From: a virus
Taxonomy: Duplodnaviria; Heunggongvirae; Uroviricota; Caudoviricetes
DNA: 40,825 nucleotides
Direction: 5' to 3' (one strand)
IMG/VR virus record: IMGVR_UViG_2917398303_000002
Location: 1-40,825 of that record
Position numbers and translations under genes: made by a program. The notes under the pieces are model-generated. The model did not search any database and was not told the DNA's origin. It saw nothing but the letters and a program-made list of their open reading frames with translations. Below are positions 13,609 to 14,401 of this stretch, piece after piece (position 1 is the first letter of the stretch; each line of letters begins with the position of its first letter).

Positions 13609-14109
13609 TTATTCGCTCCCGTTATCGCAAGGTTCCTTCCGGTGGAAGTAATTCCAACCGTTCCACTTCGCCAACTGGTTACCACTACCAACAGGCATAC
13701 GGTTTGGATAACCGGACTTACATTTTGCGGCTTTTGCTCTGTCCATTGCAGACAGTTTGACGAGTCGCTCTTTCCCGTATCTGGCAGTGGTTATAAGTTT
13801 TGCAGACGCTTCCAGCGCATAATCCGGAGCAATGCGGCAGGCAAGGTTGAAAATGACGGCATTGATAGCGTTATTTGATAAACCGTGTTCATCGCCAGGA
13901 TCTGGAGCGACATCTGCATCAGCGAAAATGTAGCCAACGTTGATACCTGGTGACGCATTACCGCCAAGCCATTCAGCCATCATCATTTCAAGGTCGTTGA
14001 CGCCGTCTTCCATAGACTGCGGTTCGACATCGGTTAACGTGGCATTTGATGCCACACCGAGCTTACGTAATGCCGCAAGGACTAAATCACCCTTCGTTGT
14101 CAGGTTCAT
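13609..14109 (-). CDS. Tail adaptor/head completion protein, P22 gp4-like; start placed at internal Met ([10 protein letters not shown]), giving 166 aa
   Basis: [28 protein letters not shown]...[27 protein letters not shown] resembles P22 gp4 as recalled; upstream in-frame extension is only the (SQ)n translation of the hexamer repeat. Confidence 0.75.
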
Positions 14110-14365
14110 CTGATGCCGCCTTAGGTTTTCGACCAGGCTTTTTACGCTGCTTTTCTTCTGGCTCTGGCTCTGGCTCTGGCTCTGGCTCTGGCTCTGGCTC
14201 TGGCTCTGGCTCTGGCTCTGCAACATCCTTCAGAAGATCATCAGGATGTGCAAACCAGCCAGCATCCAGATATTCCTGAAGCTCTTCGGCTTTCACGATT
14301 TCAAAGTCGTATCCAACGCCTTTCCACTTCTTCATGTCGCCATGACGAAAGATCATGTGTGTCAT
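14087..14365 (-). CDS. Small hypothetical protein with (Glu-Pro)10 repeat and basic C-terminus, in coat-gp4 interval; coding status uncertain
   Basis: ORF of 92 aa spanning the hexamer repeat in the EP frame; starts just downstream of the coat terminator; no clear Shine-Dalgarno. Confidence 0.4.
14157..14220. repeat. Perfect tandem hexanucleotide repeat (GCTCTG)x10 plus partial unit
   Basis: Directly visible: tctg followed by ten uninterrupted gctctg units. Confidence 0.95.
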
Positions 14366-14378
14366 GCTTGTCTACAGA

Positions 14379-14401
14379 TAAAAAAGGGAGCCGAAGCTCC
14401 C
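14379..14401 (-). terminator. Rho-independent terminator immediately after the coat gene
   Basis: On the minus strand GGGAGC-TTCG-GCTCCC hairpin followed by TTTTTTAT. Confidence 0.6.

Follow-up and report, generated by a model that had tools for sequence, protein, structure and literature searches.

A length-variable (Glu-Pro)n microsatellite in an orf69-like gene between the coat gene and gene 4 of a P22-like prophage

In phage P22, a small open reading frame (ORF), orf69 (NP_059631.1; 6135..6344; MKIAIYKPGGSIMVWGVMAQMKVIDSSELPEYVKDGWLDHPSKLLPVEADDVKPRKGRKPKAVSDADKD), separates gene 5 from gene 4 in the annotation; it lies past a stem-loop and overlaps the start of gene 4. Phages Sf6 (gene 6) and HK620 (hkbT) also carry a small ORF in the slot between the coat gene and gp4; it follows the 't coat' terminator, and it overlaps the homologue of gp4. 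In the gene order of phage lambda, a small two-part protein of the gpFI type is encoded right after the major capsid gene. The subject of this analysis was an ORF of 92 amino acids (aa) occupying the same slot in a 40,825-nucleotide (nt) stretch of viral DNA (IMG/VR record IMGVR_UViG_2917398303_000002, positions 1 to 40,825; hereafter the window). The window is an integrated P22-like prophage with an integrase, gtrB, a tailspike, ejection proteins, head genes and replication genes, and its late genes are carried on the minus strand. The ORF (14087..14365, minus strand) contains a perfect hexamer microsatellite, and sequence comparison indicates that it is a homologue of P22 orf69 (PHROG 1175). 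The orf69 family is known but uncharacterised: a literature search on P22 orf69, hkbT, Glu-Pro phage repeats and WDGH (a domain treated below) returned nothing on the function of this family, and the one 'ORF69' that was matched is an unrelated gene of Shiga toxin (Stx) phages.

The assignment to the orf69 family was based on profile matches, direct alignment and gene order. The 92-aa protein matched the profile phrog_1175 at 2.4e-33, with residues 1-90 on profile positions 1-72 of 72, and P22 orf69 matched the same profile over its full length (4.5e-31). By BLASTP, the two proteins were 37% identical over 70 residues (E 2e-11), and the N-terminal domain (N-domain) was aligned without internal gaps. 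Two orthologues, L010 (52% identity) and L011 (83% identity), were found in the matching slot of a cluster made up of portal, scaffold, coat, ORF, gp4 and gp10. The initial annotation had regarded the interval between coat and gp4 as an insertion relative to P22. This view did not hold, because P22 itself has the homologous orf69 in that slot, behind a similar hairpin and overlapping the gene 4 start. Sf6 gene 6 was also considered as a member of the family and was rejected, since the hhalign probability for its N-terminal part was only 0.2% and it belongs, like hkbT, to a different PHROG (3251), although the tail of these proteins contains KRGRKA. The gpFI-type protein of lambda is a positional analogue and serves as a lead only; no gpFI-type Pfam match to the 92-aa protein was obtained at E up to 0.1.

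Homologues of the protein formed 292-346 clusters in Enterobacterales. The close E. coli-type form was present in 8 records, representing 6 phages (IME10, APC_JM3.2, HZ41, Louie, Dewey and CurroJimenez), among 50,697 phage records. The interval was matched in 217 of 5426 complete E. coli genomes; at least 80% of the query was covered in 173 of the 217, and the remainder includes genomes with a longer allele described below. The exact 92-aa sequence was absent from a collection of 15 billion proteins, and searches of Pfam and NCBIfam with it gave low-complexity matches only (procyclin, TonB, adhesins), all far under the cut-offs. The repeat-expanded form of the gene is already present in hundreds of public genomes, where it stands unremarked as a hypothetical protein.

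The repeat was evident in the raw sequence and was the strongest one in the window by far. Tandem Repeats Finder reported it at 14157..14220 with a period of 6, 10.7 copies, 100% matches, no indels and a score of 128. The longest perfect period-6 run was 64 nt, whereas 200 first-order Markov simulations of the window gave 13.5 nt on average and never more than 17 nt. Perfect runs at the other periods from 4 to 9 did not exceed 17 nt in the real window. The repeat is real and non-random, far beyond chance. In codon register on the minus strand, (GAGCCA)10 at 14159..14218 encodes (Glu-Pro)10, residues 50-69 of the ORF. The three minus-strand readings of the repeat are EP, SQ and RA, of which SQ belongs to the gp4 frame; this frame is open starting with the ATG at 14226. 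Tandem Repeats Finder, the simulations and the matches of the flanking genes bear out the initial annotation in describing a perfect ten-unit hexamer tract between the coat terminator and gp4. The Glu-Pro ORF with a Lys/Arg/Pro-rich tail that it proposed is the real 92-aa ORF at 14087..14365, and its (SQ)n reading does exist ahead of the conserved gp4 ATG (14109), in frame with gp4.

Conservation separated these frames. Along the 49 residues ahead of the repeat, protein-level conservation was seen in the Glu-Pro frame only. The ratio of nonsynonymous to synonymous substitution rates (dN/dS) of the N-domain was 0.08 against L011, which is of the Yersinia type, and 0.28 against the 52% identical L010, with synonymous sites near saturation, a pattern which indicates that the N-domain is under purifying selection. 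In L011, (EP)5 is encoded by GAGCCT: the peptide is unaltered, whereas the gp4 frame reads SL in place of SQ. This change of proline codon under an unchanged Glu-Pro peptide implies that EP tracts expanded more than once or were kept via synonymous change. L010 has no repeat, and its gp4 frame contains stop codons just upstream of the gp4 ATG. Furthermore, the Pfam family P22_Tail-4 begins at residue 2 of the 166-aa gp4, and RefSeq gives a short gp4 and a separate hypothetical protein in this slot of E. coli genomes. Judged by this pattern of conservation, the Glu-Pro frame is the coding frame. In the L011 locus, a Logan SRR8072919 contig whose protein is listed under Yersinia pseudotuberculosis, this separate (GAGCCT)5 microsatellite lies at about 4150..4180.

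The number of units varied widely among related prophages. The alleles that were read directly contained 3, 5 (plus 1 impure), 8, 9, 10, 10, 13, 16, 24, 29 and 33 pure GAGCCA units, and in 11 of 11 the ORF was open and the tail unchanged. Match spans in 90 sampled complete E. coli genomes ranged from 427 to 619 nt in steps of six (481 nt for the window), corresponding to nearly all unit counts from 1 to 20, plus 24, 29 and 33. Four units made up the commonest class among the best matches, and the ten units of the window fall in the middle of the range for complete genomes. The tract changes faster than its flanks, as loci with an identical gp4 protein accession differed in their counts (33 vs 29 units, and 24 vs 16). 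Short alleles in the databases were often interrupted by point changes (ES, EQ, ET, EL, DP, KP and GP), as expected of decaying microsatellites. One phage record annotates a repeat_region at the tract. Some database entries for the family are marked as partial, with the sequence ending at the repeat or within it, a sign that short-read assembly can fail at the tract.

These counts bear on what had been expected of the tract. The initial annotation held that slippage would change the length of the linker and would not switch the gene on or off; in agreement with this, copy number in E. coli ranged from about 1 to 33 units across related prophages, the 11 sequence-checked alleles (3-33 units) were all in frame, and no frame-disrupting indel occurred among them. 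It had also suggested recent expansion or selection for length variation. Expansion fits the purity of the tract, whereas selection for length variation was not supported.

The protein has three parts. AlphaFold2, run on an alignment of 17 sequences, gave strands at residues 2-8 and 19-25 and helices at 26-34 and 42-48, with a predicted local distance difference test (pLDDT) score of 84-89 in these blocks and low confidence for all residues past 50. The model thus predicts a folded beta-beta-alpha N-domain of ~48 residues, in which a beta-hairpin with a long loop is followed by a helix. Thirteen of its residues were invariant among the orthologues (M1, M4, R7, G9, W14, G16, Y19, D20, G36, W37, H40, P41 and D42). 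A sequence and profile search of the N-domain against Protein Data Bank (PDB) chains yielded ETS-domain noise only (E at least 0.25), and no solved structure resembling the N-domain was found. The linkers of relatives at the position of the repeat were short, acidic and proline-rich (PVEADDVKP, AEPEPEPTQ, SSPDPEPEPEKA and IIEPEAEPEPV); the short EP runs which they hold would be the ancestral seeds of the microsatellite.

The acidic, proline-containing linker and the basic tail were present together in short and long members of the family from many Enterobacterales. The family consensus of the tail is [KR][KR]PG[RP]KPKA, with variants that include KRGRKPKA; the window has KKPGRKPKA, and the 12-residue basic core of its tail carries a net charge of +7. 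A canonical AT-hook core (RGRP) occurs in three relatives (KRRGRPPKA, KKRGRPTKV and KKRGRPAKV). The last ~8 codons of the ORF and the KPKAA codons double as the gp4 start and its ribosome-binding site, AAGGCGG, and the KKPGR part of the tail lies outside this constraint. Across the alleles, net charge changes from -4 with 1 unit to -13 with 10 units and -36 with 33 units. By polyproline-II geometry, a tract of 1, 10 or 33 units in an extended helix would measure about 0.6, 6 or 20 nm. Judging by the conserved residues and the AlphaFold2 model, the tract behaves as a spacer that joins the predicted folded N-domain to the basic tail.

The same interval can hold a longer gene. In E. coli SJC33 (L014) and MB06171 (L015), an alternative allele of ~200 aa was found between coat and gp4, consisting of an orf69-like N-domain, a WDGH domain (PF25311, 1.5e-39), (EP)2-5 made of GAGCCA units and a tail identical to that of the window. 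The slot between the coat gene and gene 4 has two allelic forms, with and without the WDGH domain. The long allele matched PHROG 3769 at 6.8e-100, and this form is widespread in Enterobacterales, with an EP-type linker, (EP)1-7, and the basic tail nearly always kept. It differs from the window gene in having the extra domain of ~100 residues between the N-domain and the linker; the window protein matched phrog_3769 at positions 1-51 only and had no WDGH match in Pfam. In other proteins, WDGH occurs in fusions with Tad2-like (Thoeris anti-defence) and with crAss001_48 domains. A model of the domain had no match among solved folds.

Remote relatives of the N-domain were found among homing-endonuclease-like proteins. 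An exhaustive phmmer search of the N-domain against 1.8 billion representatives returned the small orthologues and, in addition, proteins of 196-478 aa (plus one of 2425 aa), each with 3-6 separate stretches that aligned to residues 12-46 (E as low as 5e-7). Four of the seven larger proteins scanned against Pfam had GIY-YIG or HNH matches, mostly under Pfam's own cut-offs, and one of these four also matched PHROG homing-endonuclease families. The C-terminal halves of the larger proteins carry tandem modules of the form …K-x-I-x3-E-L-Q-x-Y-L-D-x-G-W-x-x-G, which are not in Pfam. When the orf69 N-domain was aligned by hhalign, profile against profile, to 37 such modules, the probability was 96% over 19 columns, and an HNH protein matched phrog_1175 at profile positions 24-39. 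The window protein shares with the modules of free-standing GIY-YIG and HNH homing endonucleases the strand-helix motif K-x-I/V-x3-E-L-Q-x-Y-L-D-x-G-W. Unlike the homing endonucleases, it has one copy of the module, a longer hairpin loop and no nuclease domain, and the likeness spans ~19 residues; no GIY-YIG or HNH match to the 92-aa protein was obtained in Pfam.

In characterised homing endonucleases, the C-terminal halves are the DNA-binding regions. By analogy, and given its location in the endonucleases, the module may bind DNA, and the endonuclease-type motif together with the AT-hook-like tail suggests that the orf69-family protein could bind nucleic acid. A decayed homing-endonuclease remnant was considered as the origin of the gene and was rejected, since the ORF shows conservation and purifying selection and keeps a fixed position in P22-like phages. 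As a separate observation, phages Dewey and Louie carry an HNH endonuclease gene between scaffold and coat on the opposite strand (L016, 2749..3270, plus strand), which is absent from the window.

The surroundings of the ORF are those of a P22-type late operon. Its upstream neighbour is the coat (major capsid) gene (14410..15705, minus strand; Pfam P22_CoatProtein, 5.1e-165; phrog_283/22632). Directly past the coat stop codon lies a terminator-like, G+C-rich hairpin of 9 pairs, AGAGGGAGCTTCGGCTCCCTTT followed by TTTATC (14383..14404, minus strand), equivalents of which are present in the L010 and L011 loci and are annotated as a stem-loop or 't coat' terminator in P22 and Sf6. Within the ORF, on the same strand, the predicted N-terminal domain (residues 1-49) is encoded by 14219..14365, as delimited by AlphaFold2, the invariant residues and dN/dS, then comes the microsatellite, and the 23-residue C-terminal tail and stop are encoded by 14087..14158. 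The ORF end overlaps the gene 4 start by 23 nt (14087..14109). Gene 4 (13609..14109, minus strand) encodes the 166-aa head-tail adaptor or packaged-DNA stabilisation protein (Pfam P22_Tail-4, 9.7e-59, residues 2-160; phrog_637, 5.8e-67). The stop of the ORF is located 14-23 nt inside gene 4 across the window, P22, L010 and L011. A promoter scan of 13500..15000 found no sigma-70-like site, and thus no sign of a moron-type promoter of its own, and an Rfam search of the whole window gave nothing within the coat-gp4 interval.

Taking these results together, we consider it likely that the ORF is a real small late-operon gene of the orf69 family, the counterpart of P22 orf69 in the E. coli lineage, whose acidic, disordered or extended linker became a slippage-prone in-frame microsatellite acting as a length-tolerant spacer. 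In such a history, short (Glu/Asp-Pro)n stretches at the linker position would be ancestral in the family, and in the lineage of the window the linker would have turned into pure (GAGCCA)n, which would grow and shrink via replication slippage. The two-codon unit keeps the alleles in frame, and the outcome in E. coli is a polymorphism of ~1-33 units, roughly 0.6-20 nm if the tract is polyproline-II. The linker would tolerate changes in length as a mere spacer, most of the variation being neutral or nearly so, and translation of the ORF is probably coupled to that of gene 4.

Several points weigh against this explanation. No clear Shine-Dalgarno sequence precedes the ATG of the window allele (…TCTGTAGACAAGCATG); in L010, L011 and the long allele, GGGGG or GGAG stands at this place. 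Expression of the 92-aa ORF is deduced from conservation, and this, with the weak Shine-Dalgarno sequence of the window, constitutes the main weakness of the explanation. The conservation of the tail is partly forced, because the gp4 ribosome-binding site and start overlap it, and the KKPGRKPKA of the window is without the RGRP core of an AT-hook and had no Pfam match to that motif. The neutrality of the length variation is an assumption, and the census of copy number uses match spans for most genomes, with 11 alleles read directly.

The overlap with gene 4 raises the alternative that the ORF is translated mainly as a leader, which carries ribosomes across the coat terminator hairpin into the gene 4 start, so that the peptide and the repeat length matter little. 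The location of the ORF stop within gene 4, shared by the window, P22, L010 and L011, the presence of the gp4 ribosome-binding site within the KPKAA codons and the extreme tolerance of repeat length all fit this possibility. However, a leader would have no need of the strong purifying selection and the invariant residues found in an N-domain far upstream of gene 4. In addition, conservation of the tail extends past the ribosome-binding site into KKPGR/KRGRK, and the long allele has its extra WDGH domain set between the same N-domain and tail, an arrangement that speaks for a functional protein scaffold. A role as a leader alone is therefore rather unlikely in our judgement.

A bolder proposal starts from the putative nucleic-acid binding described above. 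The orf69-family proteins might be late nucleic-acid-binding accessory factors, engaged in packaging, head completion or counter-defence, in which the (Glu-Pro)n rod of 0.6 to 20 nm would serve as a tunable element, either a molecular ruler or a polyanionic decoy mimicking the DNA backbone, and the pure microsatellite would be kept as a contingency locus that alters geometry and not expression. We regard this as improbable. A further idea is that the repeat length is adaptive, either as a tunable ruler or as a polyanionic decoy resembling the DNA backbone (for instance against a host defence or in packaging), with selection for rapid length change keeping the contingency locus pure. For this idea speak the perfect purity of the long alleles, the presence of nearly all length classes from 1 to 20 units in E. 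coli, the differences of 4 to 8 units between loci with the same gp4 accession and the range of net charge among the alleles from -4 to -36; moreover, in the long allele the linker and tail accompany WDGH, known in other proteins as a fusion partner of a Tad2-like anti-defence domain. Neutral slippage, however, also yields pure long tracts and a broad length spectrum, and the short alleles bear many interruptions (ES, EQ, ET, EL, DP) under no obvious constraint. P22 orf69 and other orthologues manage without the repeat. An adaptive repeat length is improbable in our judgement.

The two weakest alternatives deny that the Glu-Pro frame is the one that matters. That the repeat encodes (Ser-Gln)n as part of a longer gp4 N-terminus, starting at the ATG at 14226 and giving a 205-aa adaptor, is suggested by the open gp4 frame and by the records of phages Dewey and IME10, but it is very improbable, since residue 2 of the 166-aa gp4 is where the P22_Tail-4 profile begins, gene 4 of P22 has its start at the corresponding internal site, conservation upstream of the repeat is limited to the Glu-Pro frame, the stop codons of L010 and the (SL)n of L011, where (EP)n is kept, leave no conserved extension across orthologues, and RefSeq has a short gp4 plus a separate hypothetical protein. 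That the interval is a non-coding spacer with a neutral microsatellite and the ORF a chance open frame is just as poorly placed, for although the Shine-Dalgarno sequence of the window is weak or absent, expression is deduced from conservation and the family is without a Pfam or NCBIfam model, the ORF is intact in every allele examined at any length, has ~350 homologue clusters, shows a dN/dS of 0.08-0.28 with near-saturated synonymous sites, keeps its gene position down to 37% identity (P22) and is given a confident AlphaFold2 fold for its N-domain. The (SQ)n extension, the non-coding spacer, the pure leader and the adaptive rod are all less likely than a real orf69-family gene with a length-tolerant linker.

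The assignment of a conspicuous repeat to orf69, a conserved yet unexplained gene of the P22 model system, provides the first domain-level description of this gene: a folded N-domain (as predicted) with an endonuclease-module motif, an acidic proline-rich linker and an AT-hook-like tail. It also has consequences for annotation, as several phage records extend gp4 by a spurious (SQ)n and RefSeq flags intact alleles as pseudogenes. In the records of Dewey (PQ850600; L016, 609..1202) and IME10 (NC_019501, gene 4), gp4 is extended as MLQSQSQ… and the orf69-like ORF is omitted; this spurious (SQ)n N-terminus is an annotation error. The RefSeq annotation, made by the Prokaryotic Genome Annotation Pipeline (PGAP), gives pseudogene flags of the type 'incomplete; partial in the middle of a contig' at L003 535..780, L014 565..801 and L015 388..783. 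The flagged alleles are the 29-unit allele and the WDGH long form, and their ORFs actually run uninterrupted between the start codon and the usual stop. With ~1-33 units and prophage flanks 91-99% identical, the tract is a candidate variable-number tandem repeat (VNTR) marker by which the P22-like prophages of E. coli might be traced, and the partial entries mentioned above suggest that it is also a hazard for short-read assembly. The repeat by itself reveals no new mechanism.

Other features of the prophage were noted in passing. Two adjacent tRNA genes, tRNA-Thr (TGT) and tRNA-Asn (GTT), lie inside it at 23659..23814 on the minus strand, as agreed by ARAGORN and Rfam. The window holds two integrase-like ORFs on the plus strand, 1..1158 and 37872..39227 (phrog_1, 8e-81 and 8e-57), the second of which may be part of a neighbouring element. 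A 506-aa ORF directly after gtrB (2591..4111, plus strand) had no PHROG match at 1e-5 and, from its position, is probably a serotype-specific O-antigen-modifying protein of the GtrC type. An imperfect 21-bp tandem duplication (12005..12047; 2.0 copies, 81% matches) was found within the 233-aa ORF 11489..12190, located where the gene order of P22 has the gene for the needle (gp26).

Compared with the described systems, the window protein is closest to P22 orf69. Both have the three-part layout of an N-domain (…ELPEYVKDGWLDHP… in P22), an acidic proline-containing linker and a KGRKPKA-type tail (KGRKPKA in P22). They differ in that P22 orf69 has the 9-residue non-repetitive linker PVEADDVKP and no microsatellite, whereas the window protein has a pure (GAGCCA)10, which is hypervariable in its lineage. 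The tail resembles the AT-hook (PF02178), whose RGRP core is flanked by Lys/Arg, in being a short basic terminus containing glycine and proline.

The linker invites comparison with the spacer of TonB, in which (Glu-Pro)n is followed by (Lys-Pro)m to form an extended, rigid, polyproline-II-like segment. The window protein shows a similar acidic Glu-Pro run followed by a basic Lys/Pro-rich stretch. This is a likeness of composition and not of homology: the protein has neither a membrane anchor nor a TonB C-terminal domain, its match to NF008084 reached 19.6 bits against a cut-off of 315 and was confined to the low-complexity stretch, and TonB_C was not matched in Pfam. The description of the linker as TonB-like, given in the initial annotation, is apt for its composition and fails as a statement of homology.

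As a variable repeat, the tract differs from phase-variable contingency loci, in which the units are not multiples of three or are located in a promoter, so that changes in copy number switch expression. Here, the unit of 6 nt equals two codons and alleles therefore stay in frame, the 11 directly read alleles were open, and the interval has no promoter-like site. The tract is more like the in-frame coding minisatellites and VNTRs of disordered linkers, with which it shares slippage-prone perfect repeats and length alleles that differ between strains. The outcome is a coding length polymorphism and not an on/off switch.

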